Shown: piece after piece, positions 3,096 to 47,819 of the stretch
Layout: each line of letters starts with the position of its first letter
Numbering within the stretch: the first letter of the stretch is position 1
Origin: a virus
IMG/VR virus record: IMGVR_UViG_3300045988_073597
Span: 1-57,405 of that record
Length of the DNA stretch: 57,405 bases
Reading direction: 5' to 3' (one strand)
The notes under the pieces: generated by a model
Told to the model about the DNA's origin: nothing
The model's database searches: none
The model's input: only the letters and a program-made list of their open reading frames with translations
Made by a program: the position numbers and the translations under genes

Positions 3096-3817
3096 TAAGA
3101 TTCCCTCCATTCATCAAAAACTGTTTTGCTTTTTTCAGTTGAATTTTTGTTTCTTGACCGCTCCCATGTTCGAACCGCTGCTTTCCAGTCTTTCATTTTG
3201 TTTTTGCCTATCATCCACCCTTTTGATTCATAGAAATCAATAAAAGATTGTGCATCAATTCCATTTCCACGTTCTGAGCAGTACGATTCAACTTCTTCAA
3301 CATTTGGGGGAATAAAGCGTTTAGCTTTTCCCCCTCTCACACTCTCCCCTATACTATCCTTACCTATACTATCCTTACCTATACTATCCTTACCTATACT
3401 ATCCTTACCTATACTATCCTTACCTACGGATACATCTTGGATACATTTTGTATACATTTTATTTTCATCTAACGTATATGCTTTGTTTCTCTTTACTCCA
3501 AGCATAGATTTTTCGTCTACATAATCGGTTGGTCTATATCGGTCGCTTTGAATGTAATTGTGCATTTTCCAGTGTTTTATTACGATAATCCCACTTTCAA
3601 ACAAAATAACAAATGACTTAGCAACTAACAGCTTAAAATCATCGTCACTAGCACCACACATCCGTTGTATTTTCTTTGGATTATTAACAAATCCATCATC
3701 ATCGGCATTCATCGACAAATGAAAGTAAAGCATCTGTGTACTACTAGGCATATCCAAAAAAGCATCGCTTTCTGTAATTTTTTTTGCAAACATTCTTCTT
3801 TCTGCCAATTTAATCAT
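3095..3817 (-). CDS. Phage replisome organizer (N-terminal domain family) with internal GKDSI x5 repeat
   Basis: FAKKITESDAFLDMPSSTQMLYFHLSMNADDDGFVNNPKKI... is typical of the replisome organizer N-domain; the central repeat is encoded by the iterons. Confidence 0.8.
   Translation of the reverse strand: MIKLAERRMFAKKITESDAFLDMPSSTQMLYFHLSMNADDDGFVNNPKKIQRMCGASDDDFKLLVAKSFVILFESGIIVIKHWKMHNYIQSDRYRPTDYVDEKSMLGVKRNKAYTLDENKMYTKCIQDVSVGKDSIGKDSIGKDSIGKDSIGKDSIGESVRGGKAKRFIPPNVEEVESYCSERGNGIDAQSFIDFYESKGWMIGKNKMKDWKAAVRTWERSRNKNSTEKSKTVFDEWRES
3350..3424. repeat. Five exact tandem 15-bp iterons (tatactatccttacc), candidate origin of replication
   Basis: Units start at 3350, 3365, 3380, 3395 and 3410 with no mismatch. 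They are followed by ggatacat/ggatacat/gtatacat degenerate repeats at 3428-3457. Confidence 0.85.
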
Positions 3818-5162: not shown

Positions 5163-5244
5163 ACAAGCAATGTACTATCATCATAAATCTACCAAAAGGA
5201 AACCTCGGTTTTATGTGCGCACAACCTATTCCTTTCTTTGATTT

Positions 5245-5427
5245 TTAGTTTGATTTTAAAACTTCTTTCATAGCGTTAGCCATATCACATATACCCTTGA
5301 TATAGCCAATAGTAATTTCCTTGTAGTTGCTGTCGCGTTCTACAAGATTGTTATCCACAAAATCAGTTACTATGTCGTCAATCAACCTTACCGCATTGTG
5401 ATTTATTCCACTTTCATCGATCTTCAT
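5245..5427 (-). CDS. Hypothetical protein
   Basis: 60-aa ORF. Confidence 0.45.
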   Translation of the reverse strand: MKIDESGINHNAVRLIDDIVTDFVDNNLVERDSNYKEITIGYIKGICDMANAMKEVLKSN

Positions 5428-8859: not shown

Positions 8860-9612
8860 TTACTCACCTTTCATAAAATCCGGCATAGAGTTCTCTGGTT
8901 CTGCTGCCACAACTTCTGCATCAGCTTCAACAAATTCAACGCTGTTTGCATTTTTGGAAATGTCGTTCTGCACCTGTGCCTGCAATTCATCCATAGAAGA
9001 ATATTCTTTGAAGTCGTTATCCTGCATTTCCTCTCTTGTATACAATCCCATTGTCAACTCTGGGCAGTTAAGGCTTGAGAAGAATGATGCGGCTCTGTAT
9101 CTAAGCATAAGCTGTGGCATTGTTTTCCACTTGCTACCGTTTTTTCCAAGCCATCCCTCCGCTTTTGCCATATCCATGTCAACGGTCATGCCCTCTACTT
9201 TTCTGCCGTTTTTCGTAGTCCAGGCAAGGCAAGAATACGGTTTGCCGGAGTTATCTTTCTTTTCCTCGAACTGCAATTCCATGTCGAATTTTCCAGAATT
9301 ATTAATTGCTGCAATCAGAAATTTTGAACTCCATGACGGTCTACCCTGAATCACATAAAGATTCTGCATAACCATCAAAGGACTTACTTTAAGTCTCTGT
9401 GCCTGTTCAATGGCGATCAGACAGTTTGCATCATTCTTCTGGAAGGTAGATGGTACGATCGTTGAACTCGAAAGTGCTTTTGCCATCTGCATCGCCATAA
9501 TAAAGTTGTCTGATGTGCCAAAGATGCCAAGACTATAATCGGTTACTTTGTTATTATGTGCTGCCACTTCTTTTTTTTCTTCATTTACTGCCACTGCTGT
9601 GTTTTCTGCCAT
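8860..9612 (-). CDS. recT: RecT-family single-strand annealing recombinase
   Basis: QRLKVSPLMVMQNLYVIQGRPSWSSKFLIAAINNSGKF...MPQLMLRYRAASFF is typical of RecT. Confidence 0.85.
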   Translation of the reverse strand: MAENTAVAVNEEKKEVAAHNNKVTDYSLGIFGTSDNFIMAMQMAKALSSSTIVPSTFQKNDANCLIAIEQAQRLKVSPLMVMQNLYVIQGRPSWSSKFLIAAINNSGKFDMELQFEEKKDNSGKPYSCLAWTTKNGRKVEGMTVDMDMAKAEGWLGKNGSKWKTMPQLMLRYRAASFFSSLNCPELTMGLYTREEMQDNDFKEYSSMDELQAQVQNDISKNANSVEFVEADAEVVAAEPENSMPDFMKGE

Positions 9613-10136
9613 TATTTCATACCTCCGATTGTGATGTTAATTAATAAATGCAATGCTTCATTTTCTGTAAATCCTGCATCAACAAAAGATTTATAAAGTT
9701 TGTATACTTCTTTTGCTGCATCATTAATGCTATTATCTGCTTTTGGCTCTGAACTGGTTAACCGTTCAAATGCCAATCTGGCACCAATGTTGAAATCAAA
9801 TTTATCTTCCGGATTACAACGTGCAATGGCTTTCTTTCCTGTCGATTTATCAAGTGCAATCACCTGTCTATCTTTTTTGTAAATAACGATGGTTTCTGGT
9901 GCTATCTTTTCAATATTAGCTTTGTTCACATATAAGCACTGTTTGCCAGAAAGATGCGTTCCATCAATATCCTTGTCGTACATAGTTCCATTACCGCCAT
10001 CATGGAAGTCATCAAATTTTACTAAACAGTCAGTTTTGTATTCGAATATGACGGTGCCAGGTTTACCCTTAATATCGTATGTTGTTAAAAAATCGTCTTT
10101 AACTTTCACTCTGTCTCCGATTTTAAATTTGCTCAT
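9612..10136 (-). CDS. Hypothetical protein directly downstream of the RT
   Basis: ATG at 10136 (MSKFKIGDRVKVKDD...) preceded by GGAGGTAC; overlaps the RT stop by 14 nt. Confidence 0.6.
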   Translation of the reverse strand: MSKFKIGDRVKVKDDFLTTYDIKGKPGTVIFEYKTDCLVKFDDFHDGGNGTMYDKDIDGTHLSGKQCLYVNKANIEKIAPETIVIYKKDRQVIALDKSTGKKAIARCNPEDKFDFNIGARLAFERLTSSEPKADNSINDAAKEVYKLYKSFVDAGFTENEALHLLINITIGGMK

Positions 10137-11154
10137 GTTTGAGTACCTCCTTAACATATAAATCCATTGAATGACATAATTTAATGCAATTACCATGCAT
10201 TGCATGATTTTTCCAAGCATTATATTTTTCATAAAATTTTTGCTCTGACATTTTGTCAGAATTGACAAGTTTCGCCCAAACTCTAATCTTTTTTCGTATT
10301 CTTCTTTTGTTTACGCCATTCAATTTTCTTATGTATTTTCCGTCTTTTGTTATGTAATGATGAAAACCTGTAAATAACAGTCCGTTTTTAAATGGAATTA
10401 TTTGTGTCTTACCGTTAAGCGATAAACAAAGGCTATTCACGAATTGTTTTATACATTCAAGACACCACTTTAAATATTCCTTATCGTGATGAATTAAATA
10501 GAAATCATCCATGTATCTTCCATATAGTTCTATGCCTAATTCGCCAGTCGTAAAGTGATCTAATCCATTCAGAATAAGCAATGCATATACCTGTGCGGCC
10601 TGATTACCAAGTGGAAGCCCAATACCATCCGTGCTGTCAATTAACAAATGATTTAACCATTGCGTATAATCATCTTGGAAATAATAATCAACAACATCTT
10701 TTAAAATATCGTGATCTATTTGATAGAAAAATTTTGTAATATCACATTTTAAAATCCAGCCATCAATTCCATGTTGATTATAAAAATCCAACATTTGCTC
10801 TTTTAAACAATCCATTCCAAAATGTGTACCTTTTCCTATCTGCCCGGCATAATTAGTTCGAATAAATTCATTTGCTAATTTTAGATGCAACAAATTATCG
10901 CATAAGCAATGCTGTACCACTTTATCTTTAAATGAGCAGGACTTAATCACTCTTTCTTTAGGCTCATATACCTTAAATTCATTGTACGGATTCATCCGGT
11001 AAGTCTGATTTTCAAGCTGCTCTTTCAAAATGTGTAATCCCTCAAGATTCATTGTTTGAAATTTAGCACTGCTGCCATTAAATCCTTTGCCTGCTTTAGC
11101 TTTCTTATAAGCTTTATACAGGTTTCCAAAATCACATATAATATCTTTATCCAT
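10123..11154 (-). CDS. DGR reverse transcriptase
   Basis: YMDD box (YGRYMDDFYLI), LPLGNQAAQ motif, N-terminal NLYKAYKKAKAGKG; adjacent TR and avd. ATG at 11154 is preferred over the GTG at 11199. Confidence 0.9.
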   Translation of the reverse strand: MDKDIICDFGNLYKAYKKAKAGKGFNGSSAKFQTMNLEGLHILKEQLENQTYRMNPYNEFKVYEPKERVIKSCSFKDKVVQHCLCDNLLHLKLANEFIRTNYAGQIGKGTHFGMDCLKEQMLDFYNQHGIDGWILKCDITKFFYQIDHDILKDVVDYYFQDDYTQWLNHLLIDSTDGIGLPLGNQAAQVYALLILNGLDHFTTGELGIELYGRYMDDFYLIHHDKEYLKWCLECIKQFVNSLCLSLNGKTQIIPFKNGLLFTGFHHYITKDGKYIRKLNGVNKRRIRKKIRVWAKLVNSDKMSEQKFYEKYNAWKNHAMHGNCIKLCHSMDLYVKEVLKHEQI

Positions 11155-11262
11155 TGTAAAAAATCCTTTGTATTTATCCTTTTCGGAATGGTCATGCACT
11201 TTTTTGTATCTTTTTCTGATTTCGGCTTATTGCCTACTCTTACTACCTGTATGATACAGAAT

Positions 11263-11351: not shown

Positions 11352-11723
11352 TTATCTGCTTTTATCTTTCGTTCTCCAAGCAATCGCCATATGCTTGATA
11401 TCCGAAACCATTTTTGACCAATATTCCATACTTCTTGTGTTGATAATATTCAGTTTCATTGATAACTCAATGTAAAACAGAAGTTCATCACAGTGAGTTA
11501 TGGCTTTAGTCTGTAATTCTGACCGCTCTCTCCGGTAATACTTCAAATCGGTTCGATTTGCTTCATACAGATATTCATAGATTTCAAGTGCCTTATTCTG
11601 CATTTTGTCTACCAGTGAAAATCTGTATTTCTTTGGATATCTATTGCAATTTGAAGTTACACGCAATGTATGTTCTGCCAGATCTTTTGCTTTCAAAATT
11701 ACTTTTAAGTCTGATTCGGCCAT
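11352..11723 (-). CDS. avd: DGR accessory variability determinant (Avd, four-helix-bundle family)
   Basis: 123-aa basic helical protein (LAEHTLRVTSNCNRYPKKYRFSLVDKMQNKALEIYEYLYEANR) placed between the target genes and the TR. Confidence 0.75.
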   Translation of the reverse strand: MAESDLKVILKAKDLAEHTLRVTSNCNRYPKKYRFSLVDKMQNKALEIYEYLYEANRTDLKYYRRERSELQTKAITHCDELLFYIELSMKLNIINTRSMEYWSKMVSDIKHMAIAWRTKDKSR

Positions 11724-11727
11724 TTAC

Positions 11728-12324
11728 TTATTCCTCTGATTCAAAGATTGAAGATGAAAAGATACAAACCGGGCGAACACCGCGGTTGCGGTCACAGAAG
11801 TTGAAGCAGATAAGGCCGGACGGAGAAACAACGGCGACTGTCGATTTATAATTATTGCAAGGTGTGCTCCACGGTGTAATGAGCCACCACCATTCATCAG
11901 TATTCGGAATGAATTTTCTGTATTTTCGGTATTCGTCAACCGTCAAAAGAGATACAAAATCATCTGTTTCTCCATACTCCGTCTGTCCATCGAGTGATAA
12001 TAAATTTCTTTTGGAAGAAATTATATTCTCTCTTCCGACTTCTCTGGCGATTTTTTCATAAAACTCATTATTCAGATATTCTCTCAAGCTGCTTTCATTC
12101 CAGTCACTTGAGTTTTCATCAAACTTTTTATCTCCTAATGAGTCACCAATGCACATATATCCAGCATCCGTAATATCAAGGATTTTCCAGTTTATGTCTG
12201 CAAGTTCAAATTCATCTCCGATTTTTAATCCTTTCGGAATATGTATCACACCTATCTTTTTCTCAAGTGCTTTAACTCTGCCGAACAATTCTGAAATATC
12301 ATTTTCTGTAATTTTCTTTCCCAT
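11728..12324 (-). CDS. DGR variable protein 1 (DUF6273/DUF1566-like, C-type-lectin-like C-terminus)
   Basis: WWWLITPWS...VVSPSG[variable]GVRPVCIF; VR1 lies 43 nt from the stop. Confidence 0.85.
   Translation of the reverse strand: MGKKITENDISELFGRVKALEKKIGVIHIPKGLKIGDEFELADINWKILDITDAGYMCIGDSLGDKKFDENSSDWNESSLREYLNNEFYEKIAREVGRENIISSKRNLLSLDGQTEYGETDDFVSLLTVDEYRKYRKFIPNTDEWWWLITPWSTPCNNYKSTVAVVSPSGLICFNFCDRNRGVRPVCIFSSSIFESEE
11771..11834 (-). repeat. DGR variable repeat VR1
   Basis: 64 nt aligned to the TR without gaps; 13 differences, all at TR adenine positions. Confidence 0.9.
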
Positions 12325-12326
12325 GA

Positions 12327-12926
12327 TTACTTATCCCCTTTCGATACAAAGATATTAGATTTTAAGATACAAACCGGGCGAACACCGCTGCTGCCGTTAC
12401 AGTTGAAGCAGATAAGGCCGGACGGAGAAACAACGGCGACTGTCGATTTATAATTATTGCAAGGTGTGCTCCACGGTGTAATGAGCCACCACCATTCATC
12501 AGTATTCGGAATGAATTTTCTGTATTTTCGGTATTCGTCAACCGTCAAAAGAGATACAAAATCATCTGTTTCTCCATACTCCGTCTGTCCATCGAGTGAT
12601 AATAAATTTCTTTTGGAAGAAATTATATTCTCTCTTCCGACTTCTCTGGCGATTTTTTCATAAAACTCATTATTCAGATATTCTCTCAAGCTGCTTTCAT
12701 TCCAGTCACTTGAGTTTTCATCAAACTTTTTATCTCCTAATGAGTCACCAATGCACATATATCCAGCATCCGTAATATCAAGGATTTTCCAGTTTATGTC
12801 TGCAAGTTCAAATTCATCTCCGATTTTTAATCCTTTCGGAATATGTATCACACCTATCTTTTTCTCAAGTGCTTTAACTCTGCCGAACAATTCTGAAATA
12901 TCATTTTCTGTAATTTTCTTTCCCAT
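12327..12926 (-). CDS. DGR variable protein 2 (paralog; first 172 aa identical to protein 1)
   Basis: Same N-terminal 172 aa as 11728-12324; differs in the VR; its tail is identical to that of protein 3. Confidence 0.85.
   Translation of the reverse strand: MGKKITENDISELFGRVKALEKKIGVIHIPKGLKIGDEFELADINWKILDITDAGYMCIGDSLGDKKFDENSSDWNESSLREYLNNEFYEKIAREVGRENIISSKRNLLSLDGQTEYGETDDFVSLLTVDEYRKYRKFIPNTDEWWWLITPWSTPCNNYKSTVAVVSPSGLICFNCNGSSGVRPVCILKSNIFVSKGDK
12376..12436 (-). repeat. DGR variable repeat VR2 (one codon shorter than the TR)
   Basis: 61 nt; 10 substitutions, all at TR adenines, plus a 3-nt gap next to the invariant TGT codon. Confidence 0.85.
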
Positions 12927-12928
12927 GA

Positions 12929-13531
12929 TTACTTATCCCCTTTCGATACAAAGATATTAGATTTTAAGATACAAACCGGGCGAACACCGTTGAAGTTGAA
13001 ACAGCTGAAGCAGTTGACATCGCCGGACGGAGAAACAACGGACATGCTATACTTTAATCCTCTATCAGCAGTAGACCACGGTGTGCATGTCCACCACCAA
13101 TCATCCAGATCTTTGTTTACAATCAAATTGTTGAATCTTATAACCAAGCCAAAATTCGGCGGCATAACTTTGGCTCTACAAGGCTCAAATTCTTTCTGGT
13201 TATCAACAGAAAGAAGACTATTATCGTATTCAACAAGATTTTCAACCCCAACCTCAGATTCAATAACAGGCTGGATGCATTTTTCGATAACCTTTTTCAG
13301 ATTCGATTTATTGTAGTCTCGTGTATCTTCATCAAACACGACATTTTCCGCCATAAATCCTTTTGAGATCACGGTTGTCGTATCAAAATCATGTTTAAGA
13401 ACAATAAAATCATGTTCGCCGATTTTAAATACATCGCCTGGATCAAGTTCTGAAAGTCTGACCTTTTTTGCGTTTTCTGCTTCTTCAAGTCGTTTAACCA
13501 ATTCTCTTGCAAGTTCTAACTCTTTACTCAT
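12929..13531 (-). CDS. DGR variable protein 3 (diverged paralog)
   Basis: DDWWWTCTPWS...VVSPSG[variable]GVRPVCILKSNIFVSKGDK; ATG at 13531 preceded by GAGGG. Confidence 0.85.
   Translation of the reverse strand: MSKELELARELVKRLEEAENAKKVRLSELDPGDVFKIGEHDFIVLKHDFDTTTVISKGFMAENVVFDEDTRDYNKSNLKKVIEKCIQPVIESEVGVENLVEYDNSLLSVDNQKEFEPCRAKVMPPNFGLVIRFNNLIVNKDLDDWWWTCTPWSTADRGLKYSMSVVSPSGDVNCFSCFNFNGVRPVCILKSNIFVSKGDK
12978..13041 (-). repeat. DGR variable repeat VR3
   Basis: 64 nt; 11 differences from the TR, all at TR adenines. Confidence 0.9.
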
Positions 13532-14076: not shown

Positions 14077-16002
14077 TCATCCCTCCAATACAGACAATTT
14101 GTTGCCGTCTGTTACTTCAAGCATGATTAGCTGGCAACAAACAGATTTTGAAACCCGTTCTTTGTTGCTAACATCCAATGATTCAGAATCATCCAGAAAC
14201 ACAGGCACGGATAAATCATTGATTTTCTGAATCGAATTGCAAATATCAACCTTTCCGATGATCTGATTTCCTTTATTGCTCATTGTTGAAATAATTGATT
14301 TTCCATCAATAGCAGGTATGCATACTGATTTGTAACCACCAGATTTATTCACTTCAAACAGCTGCCACTGAACGGTTTCAAAATGTTTGTTTATTTCGGC
14401 AGATAACTTCTGATTTTTAGCCTTTTCCAGTTCGCCAAGCAAATAAAGAATCTTTTCTGCATCTGATTTTTTTTGCTCCATATCAATTCTACGATCACGG
14501 AGTTCTTCAAGACGCTGCTCGTCTGCGGATGTGTCGGACTTTGAAATCTGGCTTTCACATTCAGACAATTTTCTGCGTATCTCATTTTCTTCCAGCTTCA
14601 ATTGACCACGCATGTCATCAACTTTCATTGATTTCTGCATTTCTGCTTCTTTTTCATCAATCTCAGCAGACAGTTTTTTGTATTCATCTGTATCTGAAAT
14701 ATCAACAAGTTTCGGGATTGCATCTAACTGCTTGTGATATTCGTCCAGTTTTGAAAGCACTGAATTGAGCTTTTTCATATTCTCTTCTGCCACAGATTCA
14801 AGTTCTGCAAGAACTGGTTTTGATTTCTCAATTTCCTCTCTTAACGCAGTTCCTTTTGCTTCGATTTCACAAAGCCGTTTCTTCTTGCTTTCCGCAAACT
14901 CTGAAACAAGGCGTTTAATTTCTTCGTCTGGCAAGTCTCTGTGGCATGTCGGACAAATGGTTGAGTTATAATCGAATTTTTCATTGTTGACAGCTACCCA
15001 CTTCTTTGCCAACAGTTCTCTGGCAGAATCTTTTTCACTGATCTCTGACTTAATCCGGTCAACAGCAACTCCATTTTTTCTGATTTCCTCATGGATAGAA
15101 TCTACAAATGCGTTTGCATCGTTGATTTTGTGCTGCATCTCACGGATTTTATTCAAATTCGCGTCATTAGCTTGTGTCTGTAATCCGCTCAGCTGAAATT
15201 TCAGTTCCAAAATCCCATCTGCTTTTTTCTGGATATCTTTTTCCAGTGCTTCTGCATCTGTCTGCTTCTTGACGTTACAAGCCAACTGCTCAGACAGCGT
15301 ATTTTTCAGAAGTTCCAGTTCTGCCACATCAACGTCTGATTTCAACTGAATGTCACGCTGTTTTTCTTTGATTTGCCCGTCAATGACAGGCAAATCCTTT
15401 TCGATTTTTGATTTTGTTGCCTTATTCATGGCAGTTAATTCATCATCAGAATATTTTTCAAGCAAACCTGTAATCGCAGAAAGTTCAGCATTTTCTTTTG
15501 CCACGTCCAGATCATTGACATTTTCAACCAGTCCAAACAGATAGCTTCTCATATCTGCTGTTTTCTGATTAAGAAATGCTCCCGGACTGCTGCACATTTT
15601 CAACAAATTCATATCGATCTCAAAATACTCATTAAATGCTTTGAGAGTTTTTGGAACTTCGTTGATGAAATATGTGTTGTCATCTGAATATCCGACACCA
15701 TCTTTTTTGTATTTGCGTTTCTGGACCTTTCTGGCAGTCACTTCCTTACCATCAATATCCAATACGGCAGTAACCGAAACGTCCATGTCGTCTACTGACT
15801 TACCACCAACAACTCTTCGTACTGCCGGATTATCCTTTAACTGGTAATCACATCCGAACATCAGCCATGTATAGGCTGTGGCAATAGTTGATTTACCGAT
15901 TCCGTTTCTACCGGCCACTACTGTTCTGTTGAAAAAATCAAACTCGGCATGTGGGTATGCCATGAAGTTATCAACAATGAGTTTTCTCAATACAATTTTC
16001 AT
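14077..16002 (-). CDS. Rad50/SbcC-like AAA ATPase with coiled coil and CxxC zinc hook
   Basis: Walker A GRNGIGKST; long coiled-coil middle with CPTC at its centre; C-terminal VFLDDSESLD Walker B/D-loop. Confidence 0.75.
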   Translation of the reverse strand: MKIVLRKLIVDNFMAYPHAEFDFFNRTVVAGRNGIGKSTIATAYTWLMFGCDYQLKDNPAVRRVVGGKSVDDMDVSVTAVLDIDGKEVTARKVQKRKYKKDGVGYSDDNTYFINEVPKTLKAFNEYFEIDMNLLKMCSSPGAFLNQKTADMRSYLFGLVENVNDLDVAKENAELSAITGLLEKYSDDELTAMNKATKSKIEKDLPVIDGQIKEKQRDIQLKSDVDVAELELLKNTLSEQLACNVKKQTDAEALEKDIQKKADGILELKFQLSGLQTQANDANLNKIREMQHKINDANAFVDSIHEEIRKNGVAVDRIKSEISEKDSARELLAKKWVAVNNEKFDYNSTICPTCHRDLPDEEIKRLVSEFAESKKKRLCEIEAKGTALREEIEKSKPVLAELESVAEENMKKLNSVLSKLDEYHKQLDAIPKLVDISDTDEYKKLSAEIDEKEAEMQKSMKVDDMRGQLKLEENEIRRKLSECESQISKSDTSADEQRLEELRDRRIDMEQKKSDAEKILYLLGELEKAKNQKLSAEINKHFETVQWQLFEVNKSGGYKSVCIPAIDGKSIISTMSNKGNQIIGKVDICNSIQKINDLSVPVFLDDSESLDVSNKERVSKSVCCQLIMLEVTDGNKLSVLEG

Positions 16003-46981: not shown

Positions 46982-47071
46982 TGGAAAAGGTTGGAATTGA
47001 ACCAACAACGTTTACCACATGGGAACGGTTTTACAGACCGCTGTAGCACAACCAATAGCTACCTCTTTTCC
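46982..47071 (-). tRNA. tRNA-Tyr (anticodon GTA) with long variable arm
   Basis: Hand-folded. Acceptor ggaaaag/cttttcc, D stem gtag/ctac, anticodon stem gcggt/accgt, loop ctGTAaa, T arm gttgg-ttcaatt-ccaac. Confidence 0.75.
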
Positions 47072-47162
47072 GTGTGCATTTCTGCAAAAGCAGCATTTTT
47101 TTAATTCAAGTGGATTTCTGCCACCAACACTCTATCCGGTCGCTATCCGGAATATTTGAATG

Positions 47163-47345
47163 TAAGGACTTGCACCTTATTAGAGCCCATCTTCCAAGAA
47201 TCGAACTTGTCTTGCTTGTATATCGCAAGGTCACCAGACATCCGGAATCGAACCGGACTAAGCACTTTGCCATTCAACACCTACGGTTGCCACCAACGTC
47301 TGACATTCATCTACCAGCATTACCACTTGCAAGGCTTTGAACATT
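47163..47345 (-). other. Cluster of degenerate tRNA-like fragments (at least three T-arm-like hairpins without complete cloverleaves)
   Basis: T-arm-like elements: taagg-tgcaagt-cctta (47163-47180), caag-ttcgatt-cttg (47197-47214) and tccgg-ttcgatt-ccgga (47241-47257). I could not fold canonical anticodon or D arms around them. Confidence 0.4.
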
Positions 47346-47351
47346 GGTCAA

Positions 47352-47425
47352 TCGGAATGGTAGGATTCGAACCCACGACCAACTGTGTATAAGACAGGTG
47401 CGCTAACCAACTGCGCTACATTCCG
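47352..47425 (-). tRNA. tRNA-Ile (anticodon TAT)
   Basis: Hand-folded 74 nt. Acceptor cggaatg/cattccg, D stem gcgc/gcgc, anticodon loop ctTATac (27:43 C-U mismatch), T arm gtggg-ttcgaat-cctac. Confidence 0.7.
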
Positions 47426-47498
47426 ATACCGGGCAAATTTATTTTCGCCCGGTACAACACATATCAACAGAAAGGATTGAACTCTATGAAAAGTCCAA

Positions 47499-47569
47499 TG
47501 GCTGCAACAGGACTTGAACCTGTTCCTCCAAATGTGCGCGCTGTGTGCTTTCCGTTACACCATGCAGCC
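47499..47569 (-). pseudogene. tRNA-like element with intact acceptor, D and T arms but no foldable anticodon arm
   Basis: Acceptor ggctgca/tgcagcc, D stem gtgt/gcac and T arm acagg-ttcaagt-cctgt are intact. The region where the anticodon arm should be (cagcgcgcacatttgga) does not pair. Confidence 0.5.
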
Positions 47570-47622
47570 TTGTTTGCATACATTTCAGTGCGGTATGCAA
47601 GCGCACAACAAGAGGTGTAAAA

Positions 47623-47690
47623 ATAGGGATGCCACTCATGCCATCTGTCCGATGGCTAATCCCTACACAACATTTGACCGCTATGTAGGG
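47623..47690 (-). promoter_or_regulatory. Attenuator-like element: mutually exclusive hairpins, the 3' one followed by a U-run
   Basis: On the minus-strand RNA, ccctaca (47690-47684) can pair with tgtaggg (47667-47661). The overlapping tagggat (47665-47659) can instead pair with atcccta (47630-47624), which is followed by TTTTT. Confidence 0.4.
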
Positions 47691-47748
47691 CATATCTTTT
47701 ATAACAAGGAGAAATAAATATATGGGATTTTCGGATATACATCCCAAA

Positions 47749-47819
47749 CTAGGGTAATCGGAATCGAACCGATGACCACGGAGTCAAAATCCGTTGCGCT
47801 ACCACTGCGCCATACCCCA
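47749..47819 (-). tRNA. tRNA-Gln (anticodon TTG)
   Basis: Hand-folded. Acceptor tggggta/tacccta, D stem gcgc/gcgc, anticodon stem acgga/tccgt, loop ttTTGac, T arm atcgg-ttcgatt-ccgat. Confidence 0.75.

Follow-up and report, generated by a model that had tools for sequence, protein, structure and literature searches.

The viral DNA analysed here (the window; the whole 57,405-nt stretch, positions 1 to 57,405 of IMG/VR record IMGVR_UViG_3300045988_073597) was found to carry on its minus strand a complete diversity-generating retroelement (DGR) with three tandem target genes, in the transcription order target 3 (T3), target 2 (T2), target 1 (T1), Avd, template repeat (TR) and reverse transcriptase (RT). 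The middle target, T2, is a chimera in which the body of T1 is joined to the tail of T3, and the switch between the two falls inside the variable repeat (VR) and the adjoining initiation of mutagenic homing (IMH) site. We consider it probable that this arrangement was generated by repeated unequal recombination between the VR/IMH elements of adjacent targets, followed by re-writing by the DGR from the IMH end. The overall interpretation of an earlier reading of the same DNA, made without database searches (the sequence-only reading), is supported by the analysis reported here.

A perfect tandem repeat that ends inside variable repeats

The targets, the two copies of the repeat, the TR and the VRs are located as follows.

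11728..12324, minus strand: T1, 198 aa, with tail CIFSSSIFESEE; Pfam DUF6273, 44 bits against a cutoff of 23.5
12327..12926, minus strand: T2, 199 aa, chimera of T1 body and T3 tail CILKSNIFVSKGDK; Pfam DUF6273, 45.9 bits
12929..13531, minus strand: T3, 200 aa from an ATG start (MSKELEL...); Pfam DUF6273, 22.3 bits, just under the cutoff
11799..12387, no strand assigned: copy A of the perfect repeat, which on the minus strand covers the T2 IMH and tail, passes the ribosome site and the start and body of T1, and ends 16 nt into the VR1 variable segment
12401..12989, no strand assigned: copy B of the perfect repeat, comprising the T3 IMH and tail, the ribosome site, the start and body of T2, and 16 nt from the beginning of the VR2 variable segment
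11263..11326, minus strand: TR, consisting of a 20-nt constant block, 33 nt reading AAT ATC (AAC)4 TGT (AAC)4, and then GGTGTTCGCCC
11759..11834, minus strand: VR1 (IMH 11759-11781; variable segment of 33 nt, 11782-11814; 5' constant block of 20 nt, 11815-11834)
12364..12436, minus strand: VR2 (IMH 12364-12386; variable segment of 30 nt, one codon short, 12387-12416; 5' constant block of 20 nt, 12417-12436)
12966..13041, minus strand: VR3 (IMH 12966-12988; variable segment of 33 nt, 12989-13021; 5' constant block of 20 nt, 13022-13041)

Comparison of the window with itself at an offset of 602 revealed that positions 11799-12387 and 12401-12989 are identical over 589 bp, in agreement with the 602-bp tandem duplication proposed from the sequence alone. 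Scattered differences outside the VR, which had been named as a sign against a recent exchange, were absent from the window repeat (0/589), and both ends of the identical stretch fall inside VR variable segments. The open reading frames on the opposite strand, described earlier as repeating with the same offset, were confirmed to do so. The proteins encoded by T1 and T2 are indeed identical from their N-termini, although over 175 aa rather than the 172 reported; similarly, the junction sequence is present in two copies (as a 51-mer), at 12325 and 12927, one base away from the 12326 and 12928 originally given.

The tail of T2 (...CILKSNIFVSKGDK) is that of T3 and differs from the tail of T1 (...CIFSSSIFESEE), and the chimeric gene also carries the ribosome site that comes after the T3 tail. 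T2 is accordingly the recombinant that had been suspected, with the switch from T1 body to T3 tail located in the interval from VR codon 5 to the IMH end. T3 itself is an old paralogue of T1, with ~32% amino acid identity. Since the bodies of T3 and T1 are so dissimilar, the VR/IMH element constitutes the only substantial homology between neighbouring targets.

Template repeat, variable repeats and IMH

The VR/IMH element at the end of each target spans 76 nt, made up of a 20-nt constant block, 33 variable nucleotides and a 23-nt IMH. The constant block CCGTTGTTTCTCCGTCCGGC was observed four times (in the TR and in the three VRs) and the IMH GGTGTTCGCCCGGTTTGTATCTT three times, in the VRs only; for both, approximately zero occurrences are expected by chance. 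The 3' ends differ, in that the VRs close with GGTGTTCGCCCGGTTTGTATCTT, whereas the TR runs on into GGTGTTCGCCCATTCTGTATCA, and an IMH function is predicted for the former. All 34 mismatches between TR and VRs fall at TR adenines (13 in VR1, 10 in VR2 and 11 in VR3). The sequence-level hallmarks of a DGR are present, namely an RT next to the TR, adenine-only TR/VR differences, an Avd-type protein and a distinct IMH. Diversification is ongoing in the population, as near-identical genomes were shown to carry different VR alleles that vary at TR-adenine positions.

The dinucleotide following GGTGTTCGCCC is GG, AG or AT in different VRs (GVRP-V/F-C) and AT in the TR. It occupies positions 11770-11771, 12375-12376 and 12977-12978 of the window, with equivalent sites in the related loci L001-L026, and its variation among VRs suggests that the 3' limit of TR-to-VR transfer is variable within the nominal IMH. 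A search for a hairpin or cruciform of the BPP-1 type after the VRs yielded no significant structure (z = 0.09 after the T3 tail and z = -1.97 after the T1 tail). A small hairpin, CTGTA TCA TACAG, was observed directly after the TR (11240-11262, minus strand; z = -2.96 for a 66-nt stretch), and may contribute to a DGR RNA structure that serves in priming.

Probable re-diversification of VR2 and codon indels

VR1 and VR2 share their gene-proximal codons CTT ATC TGC TTC AAC, i.e. the first 15 variable nucleotides, and differ in the remainder, as had been noted from the sequence. Five consecutive codons are expected to be identical by chance with a probability of ~1e-4, as estimated from per-position sharing among unrelated alleles, and VR1 and VR2 are for this reason regarded as sisters that differ only in their IMH-proximal half.

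The proposal that such re-diversification starts from the IMH end is supported by a comparison of alleles among relatives, in which close T3 alleles retained 5' VR codons in common more often than 3' ones (the trend being weak for T1). In close T3 pairs, VR position 1 was shared at a frequency of 0.34 against a background of 0.11, and positions 3-5 at 0.20-0.23 against 0.11-0.13, compared with 0.11-0.17 against 0.10-0.13 for positions 8-11, among which positions 9 and 10 (0.13 and 0.11) were at background and positions 8 and 11 (0.17) slightly above it. This gradient fits conversion tracts that are anchored at the IMH. Conversion tracts in BPP-1 are anchored in this manner.

VR2 was also confirmed to be one codon short, with 10 variable codons compared with 11 in the TR, VR1 and VR3. 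In relatives, the variable segments measure 30, 33, 36, 39 or 42 nt against a TR of 33 nt, and hence change in whole-codon steps; such length variants were observed in L002, L008, L012, L018 and L026, in addition to VR2 of the window (12387-12416). The TR of L018 is itself longer by one AAC, at 36 nt, a length also found in two of the three VRs of this locus. A 2026 study of the reconstituted BPP-1 DGR mentions that indels within AAC repeats have been ascribed to slippage in multiples of three bases (PMC12875486). As slippage in AAC runs is known, the missing codon of VR2 is most simply explained as the mark of a DGR homing event. A crossover between VR1 and VR3 at the common CTGCTTCA, one codon out of register, could also produce a ten-codon VR2, yet this is no simpler than slippage because the 3' half of VR2 is unlike VR3 and a further event would still be needed.

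Target number in relatives and recurrence of the chimera

Public collections were searched for related loci, which revealed phages with one, two and three targets among public contigs, i.e. the copy-number variants anticipated by the sequence-only reading. An identical Avd protein is indexed in 393 blocks of a public assembly collection. In an untargeted sample of 10 loci with this identical Avd, eight carried T3 and T1, one a truncated T3 and one a single target; none had three. The usual two-target order is a 200-aa gene of the T3 type followed by a 198/199-aa gene of the T1 type; T3 of the window is the orthologue of the former, and T1 that of the 198-aa gene preceding avd. The more diverged relatives L026 and L027 are also of the two-target type. 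The ancestral state predicted by a model of unequal crossover is therefore the norm. In two-target relatives, VR3/IMH and VR1/IMH lie 605 nt apart, so the direct repeats that bound the duplication predate it.

Chimeric genes were identified in independent samples. A protein search with T2 returned T1-type bodies with a T3 tail in ~6 of ~103 classified T1-type clusters. Complete loci with the order T3, T2, T1, Avd, TR and RT were found in L017, L018 and L019, and a full three-target locus also in L020, which belongs to a separate assembly record (ERZ28630137). Over 8,600 nt, L020 differs from the window at a single position, a SNP in T1 that has no counterpart in T2, and its scaffold encodes the exact T2 protein of the window and the same three VR alleles. 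Three short contigs contain the chimeric junction as well. L021 (ERZ27954564 k141_219592; 746 nt) has a terminal overlap of exactly 141 nt and represents a closed loop of one 605-nt unit with T1 body, VR and T3 tail; L022, a k141 contig, reads VR, T3 tail, T1-type body, VR, T3 tail and T1 start; and L024, a JGI contig of 1,044 nt, carries the junction of T1 body and T3 tail in a diverged lineage. In total, the chimera was observed in at least four or five diverged lineages.

Within each of the four complete three-target genomes, the T2 body does not differ from its own T1 (0/510 nt). Between lineages, by comparison, bodies differ at 41-46 nt, or at 75-96 nt for the L022 lineage. Two-target siblings were found only 0-1 nt away from three-target genomes (L009 from the window, L003 from L019). 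Taken together, zero divergence within genomes, diverged lineages and near-identical two-target siblings are indicative of recurrent young duplications (or losses) and not of one old event.

Among six relatives in IMG/VR, the chimera was found in none. A megablast search of GenBank phages with the 4.1-kb locus and a protein-seeded scan of GTDB genomes gave no match, and a chimera-specific DNA pattern matched a single ~1-kb contig in JGI metagenomes. A DNA-pattern search of GTDB returned one decayed prophage only, in a Roseburia sp. metagenome-assembled genome (MAG). Two-target prophages with a decayed DGR were identified in GCA_977050415.1 (L023, Eubacterium ramulus) and in a Roseburia sp. MAG (L027). 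The phage is common in the human gut, with E. ramulus or related Lachnospiraceae as its probable host. In L023, L025 and L027, Avd is truncated and the TR and RT are missing or cut down, and the targets are intact with frozen VRs.

Evidence for exchange at the VR/IMH in both directions

Two sets of loci record the movement of complete VR alleles between tails. The 33-nt allele TATATCCGCATCAACCGCTGTGACTTCAACTGC occupies the T1 slot, before a T1 tail, in L017 and the T2 slot, before a T3 tail, in L019, and the T1 allele of L019 is the same as that of the two-target L003 and of L011. L019 would be obtainable by one unequal exchange within the 23-nt IMH that joined two genomes differing only in their T1 VR allele.

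Conversely, the one-target locus L025 consists of a T3 body, a VR, a T1 tail and a remnant of avd. L025 and the two-target L026 share an identical 33-nt VR3 allele and 99.2% identical adjacent T3 sequence, and diverge inside the IMH; the pair documents the reciprocal contraction product.

Two further candidates for contraction were rejected. L010, with one target, is only ~89% identical over its genome to two-target relatives and may be old or ancestral rather than a recent reciprocal product, so that L025/L026 is the clearer example. L008 lacks the T3 body, and its breakpoint lies ~85 nt upstream of VR3, inside that body, and not at the VR: a deletion of ~3.7 kb (L008 ~5199-5263) fuses a Bro-N gene to the last ~85 nt of the T3 body and leaves an orphan VR3 with T3 tail upstream of T1.

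Hybrid tails were also observed, namely ILKSNIF|ESED in T1 of L018 (5107-5205) and in three protein clusters, and ILKSNIFVS|EE in one protein cluster. These sequences point to further exchanges between T3 and T1 tails at matches of ~7 nt (ATCTTTG). The tail of P0063 contains an internal duplication of SSSIF.

Proposed mechanism and alternative explanations

Starting from the structure, its recurrence, the reciprocal product and the adenine-only mutagenesis described above, the following order of events is suggested. The locus is an active-looking phage DGR whose usual complement is a neighbouring pair of paralogous targets, T3 and T1. In this genome, the T1 VR/IMH of one phage DNA molecule would have undergone unequal (non-allelic) exchange with the T3 VR/IMH of another, the partners being sister genomes, parts of a concatemer or a co-infecting genome. 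The exchange would have duplicated a 602-nt module consisting of the IMH, T3 tail, ribosome site, T1 body and 5' end of the VR, with T2 as its product, which is presumably expressed and diversifiable. Afterwards, the DGR would have re-written one of the sister VRs in its IMH-proximal half only, from a cDNA that carried, or was integrated with, a one-codon slip in the AAC run, so that five 5' codons stayed identical in VR1 and VR2. Across the species, gains and losses of the repeat-bounded module would have recurred, leaving genomes with one, two or three targets.

The exchange itself is likely to have been driven by homology or annealing, possibly through the phage RecT. Both the RecT-like protein and an SbcC/Rad50-like ATPase encoded near the DGR may be involved, RecT being a candidate catalyst of short-homology exchange. 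The earlier suggestion that DGR repeats themselves drive expansion of the target family holds only in the sense that the repeats are the substrate of recombination.

Several observations weigh against unequal recombination as formulated here. The perfect matches on which an exchange could act measure only 20 and 23 nt, which is marginal for RecA-type recombination and speaks for annealing or template switching rather than a classical RecA exchange. A simple crossover between VR1 and VR3 predicts that the 3' half of VR2 equals that of VR3; as this was not observed, at least one further homing event has to be assumed. Among T1-type alleles, the gradient in position sharing is weak, and the pairs entering the comparison are non-independent. 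Finally, the copy number in the window's own sample is derived from assembled sequence and not from reads, and the complete three-target loci are all '...METAG-scaffold' records, probably from one pipeline.

An alternative that we consider unlikely is a duplication coupled to retrohoming, in which a mutagenised cDNA or an IMH-directed homing intermediate engages the IMH of T3 and is resolved in the VR of T1 on sister DNA. This would account for the window in one step, placing a new 3' half of VR2 with mutations at adenine sites (TGT AAC GGC AGC AGC) beside a T3 tail, behind a 5' half equal to that of VR1, and a one-codon slip at the join is typical of DGR products (PMC12875486). In the reconstituted BPP-1 system, cDNA integration was proposed to resemble annealing of ssDNA to an exposed lagging-strand template (PMC12875486), and annealing-like integration of this kind could bridge non-allelic repeats. 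However, the same data are expected from recombination followed by an ordinary partial homing event. Moreover, complete VR alleles were moved in L025/L026 and in L019, whose T2 allele is also the T1 allele of L017; the switch in these loci lies in the IMH without new mutagenesis, as plain recombination predicts. L025 has, in addition, lost its RT, although this loss may have preceded or followed the contraction. In a broader version, which likewise appears doubtful, DGR homing intermediates (a cDNA across two VR/IMH elements, or an IMH-directed lesion) would catalyse the joins and thereby expand and contract the element's own array as a built-in 'accordion'. If this were true, the 605-nt closed loop of L021 would reflect amplified arrays or excised one-unit circles.

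It is considerably less probable that the triplet is an assembly artefact, in which a two-target phage with mixed VR alleles led the assembler through a false cycle at the VR and the T1 module was printed twice. In the window, L017, L018 and L019, no base outside the VR differs between the two copies, and a doubly traversed graph edge would look alike; the shared scaffold naming of the complete loci and the breakage of relatives' contigs (L011, L013 and L014) at the target locus also fit this explanation. Nevertheless, a false cycle requires k-mers that join a T1-linked VR allele to a T3 tail, and as the common IMH measures just 23 nt, any k above ~30 needs real molecules for this junction. 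The exact junction is also held by contigs L021 and L022, with the k141_ names of MEGAHIT style, and by the JGI contig L024 from a diverged lineage. L020, a further assembly record of the same strain as the window, repeats its three VR alleles and has a SNP between T1 and T2 within the repeat, and the VR2 allele is unique, one codon short and equal to neither VR1 nor VR3.

The contigs L011, L013 and L014 (~58-60 kb) originate from one metagenome (IMG/VR 3300045988) and end at, or a few bases from, T1, which suggests that the assembly graph branches there owing to mixed VR alleles or mixed copy number. The isolated loop of L021 implies either a depth of the unit far above that of the paths leading into and out of it, as in arrays or circles, or pruning by the assembler of VR1 and VR3 because they were highly mixed in the sample. 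It is the sole hint of amplified arrays with more than three copies.

Hardly credible is a single old duplication after which T1 and T2 were kept identical by continual gene conversion (concerted evolution), with two-target genomes as secondary losses: T1 and T2 do co-vary perfectly within individual genomes, even at a single SNP that separates L017 from L019, and hybrid tails such as ILKSNIF|ESED of L018 show conversion-like exchange in the region, yet two-target genomes dominate and cover much greater divergence, with L027 and L024 among the distant relatives, two-target siblings differ from three-target genomes at just 0-1 nt, the 5' half of the VR is still common to T1 and T2 in the window, indicative of a very recent common origin of both copies, and three-target genomes are, as the small current sample suggests, scattered among two-target ones.

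Further genes of the locus and its genomic context

The remaining annotated genes of the DGR and the neighbouring annealase are listed below.

10123..11199, minus strand: DGR RT; Pfam RVT_1, 46.9 bits against a cutoff of 29.6; YMDD motif in the translation
11352..11723, minus strand: Avd-like accessory protein, 123 aa; NCBIfam DivGenRetAVD, E=1.1e-12, 48 bits, under the equivalog cutoff of 80
8860..9612, minus strand: phage RecT-like single-strand annealing protein; Pfam RecT, 32.6 bits against a cutoff of 24; phrog_561 'RecT-like ssDNA annealing protein', E=1.5e-76

The RT open reading frame encodes 358 aa from a GTG start, and a 343-aa form is called in relatives. The protein is 41-49% identical to RT regions in the records of DGR-carrying gut phages (nd12, nd4 and Faecalibacterium phages), and its tblastn matches include Bordetella phage records. 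The Avd-like gene, whose profile match indicates homology to DivGenRetAVD and not equivalog-level identity, gave weak matches to Pfam bAvd and 23S_rRNA_IVP; it sits between target and TR, the position expected in a DGR.

The gene for the RecT-like protein lies downstream of the RT, two genes away, and on the opposite flank, beyond the targets, positions 14077-16002 encode an SbcC/Rad50-like ATPase. The whole DGR, targets included, lies between these two genes, within a recombination/replication module. Phage DGR targets usually adjoin tail genes. For the targets (~200 aa), the sole functionally named PHROG match was a weak one to Hoc-like head decoration proteins.

Elsewhere in the window, positions 3348-3426 hold 5.3 perfect tandem copies of a 15-nt unit, CCTATACTATCCTTA, and an 11-nt repeat comes next, at 3428-3460; the two may represent a regulatory array or the iterons of a replication origin. 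Three phage tRNA genes (Tyr-GTA, Ile-TAT and Gln-TTG) are present on the minus strand at 46982-47819.

Comparison with known systems

The locus resembles the DGR of Bordetella phage BPP-1 (mtd-avd-TR-brt) in the order of target/VR, avd, TR and RT, in its adenine-only substitutions and AAC-rich template, and in an IMH at the 3' end of the VR that is unlike the sequence following the TR. It differs from BPP-1, which has one tail-fibre target, in its three tandem targets of ~200 aa with DUF6273 only, its position in a recombination module and the absence of a convincing hairpin after the VRs.

Multi-target DGRs, and their origin by duplication of target genes, are established (PMC3521204, PMC10907252, PMC10743442). 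In those of Treponema denticola and Stenotrophomonas, one TR/RT likewise serves several paralogous targets (DiGReF survey, PMC3521204; PMC10743442; PMC10907252). In such cases, duplication was inferred from diverged paralogues or linked to transposons, whereas the present locus combines zero divergence, polymorphism among strains, breakpoints mapped to the VR/IMH and a reciprocal deletion.

The closest annotated systems are the DGRs of gut Firmicutes phages nd4 and nd12 and of the Faecalibacterium phages Lelie, FP_Brigit and FP_Toutatis (RT identity 41-49%), whose small single-domain DUF6273 targets are 28-36% identical to T1. These phages differ in host and module context, no nucleotide-level match to the locus exists in GenBank phages, and no report of a tandem target triplet in them was found in the literature searched.

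DUF6273 has been reported to be C-type-lectin-like (CLec-like) (PMC10743442), and the VR is described at the C-terminal end of this domain in Faecalibacterium phage targets. An AlphaFold2 model of T2, based on an alignment of 81 sequences, was poor (pLDDT 55.6, with residues 147-198 below 50), and a profile search of PDB sequences with the target gave only spurious S100 matches.

Outside DGRs, a tandem paralogue cluster of Staphylococcus aureus (PMC2568036) and the esaG immunity genes (PMC9484751) are comparable in their strain-variable copy number and in junctions that fall in common sequence; the unit gained or lost there also runs from the 3' end of an open reading frame through the intergenic ribosome site into the next frame. 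They differ from the present case, where the homology is a retroelement recognition repeat kept homogenised by the DGR and not similarity of the gene bodies (~32%).

Poxvirus 'gene accordions' are a further case of unequal recombination in tandem clusters. Within the literature searched, no description was found of a polymorphic tandem duplication that is bounded by VR/IMH elements and accompanied by reciprocal products.

Implications for DGR target arrays

DGRs with several targets are common, and 'duplication' is usually named as their origin with no mechanism given. The three-target genomes hold a perfect repeat of 570-590 bp, which probably fragments de Bruijn graph assemblies made without repeat resolution, so that surveys probably under-count targets. 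In the phage described here, which is abundant in public human-gut metagenomes, one-, two- and three-target stages occur side by side; in all cases the breakpoints fall within the VR/IMH repeat of the element itself, and sister VRs have been caught part-way through re-diversification. The locus provides a clear natural record of DGR target arrays growing and shrinking, through which the turnover of such arrays becomes measurable.

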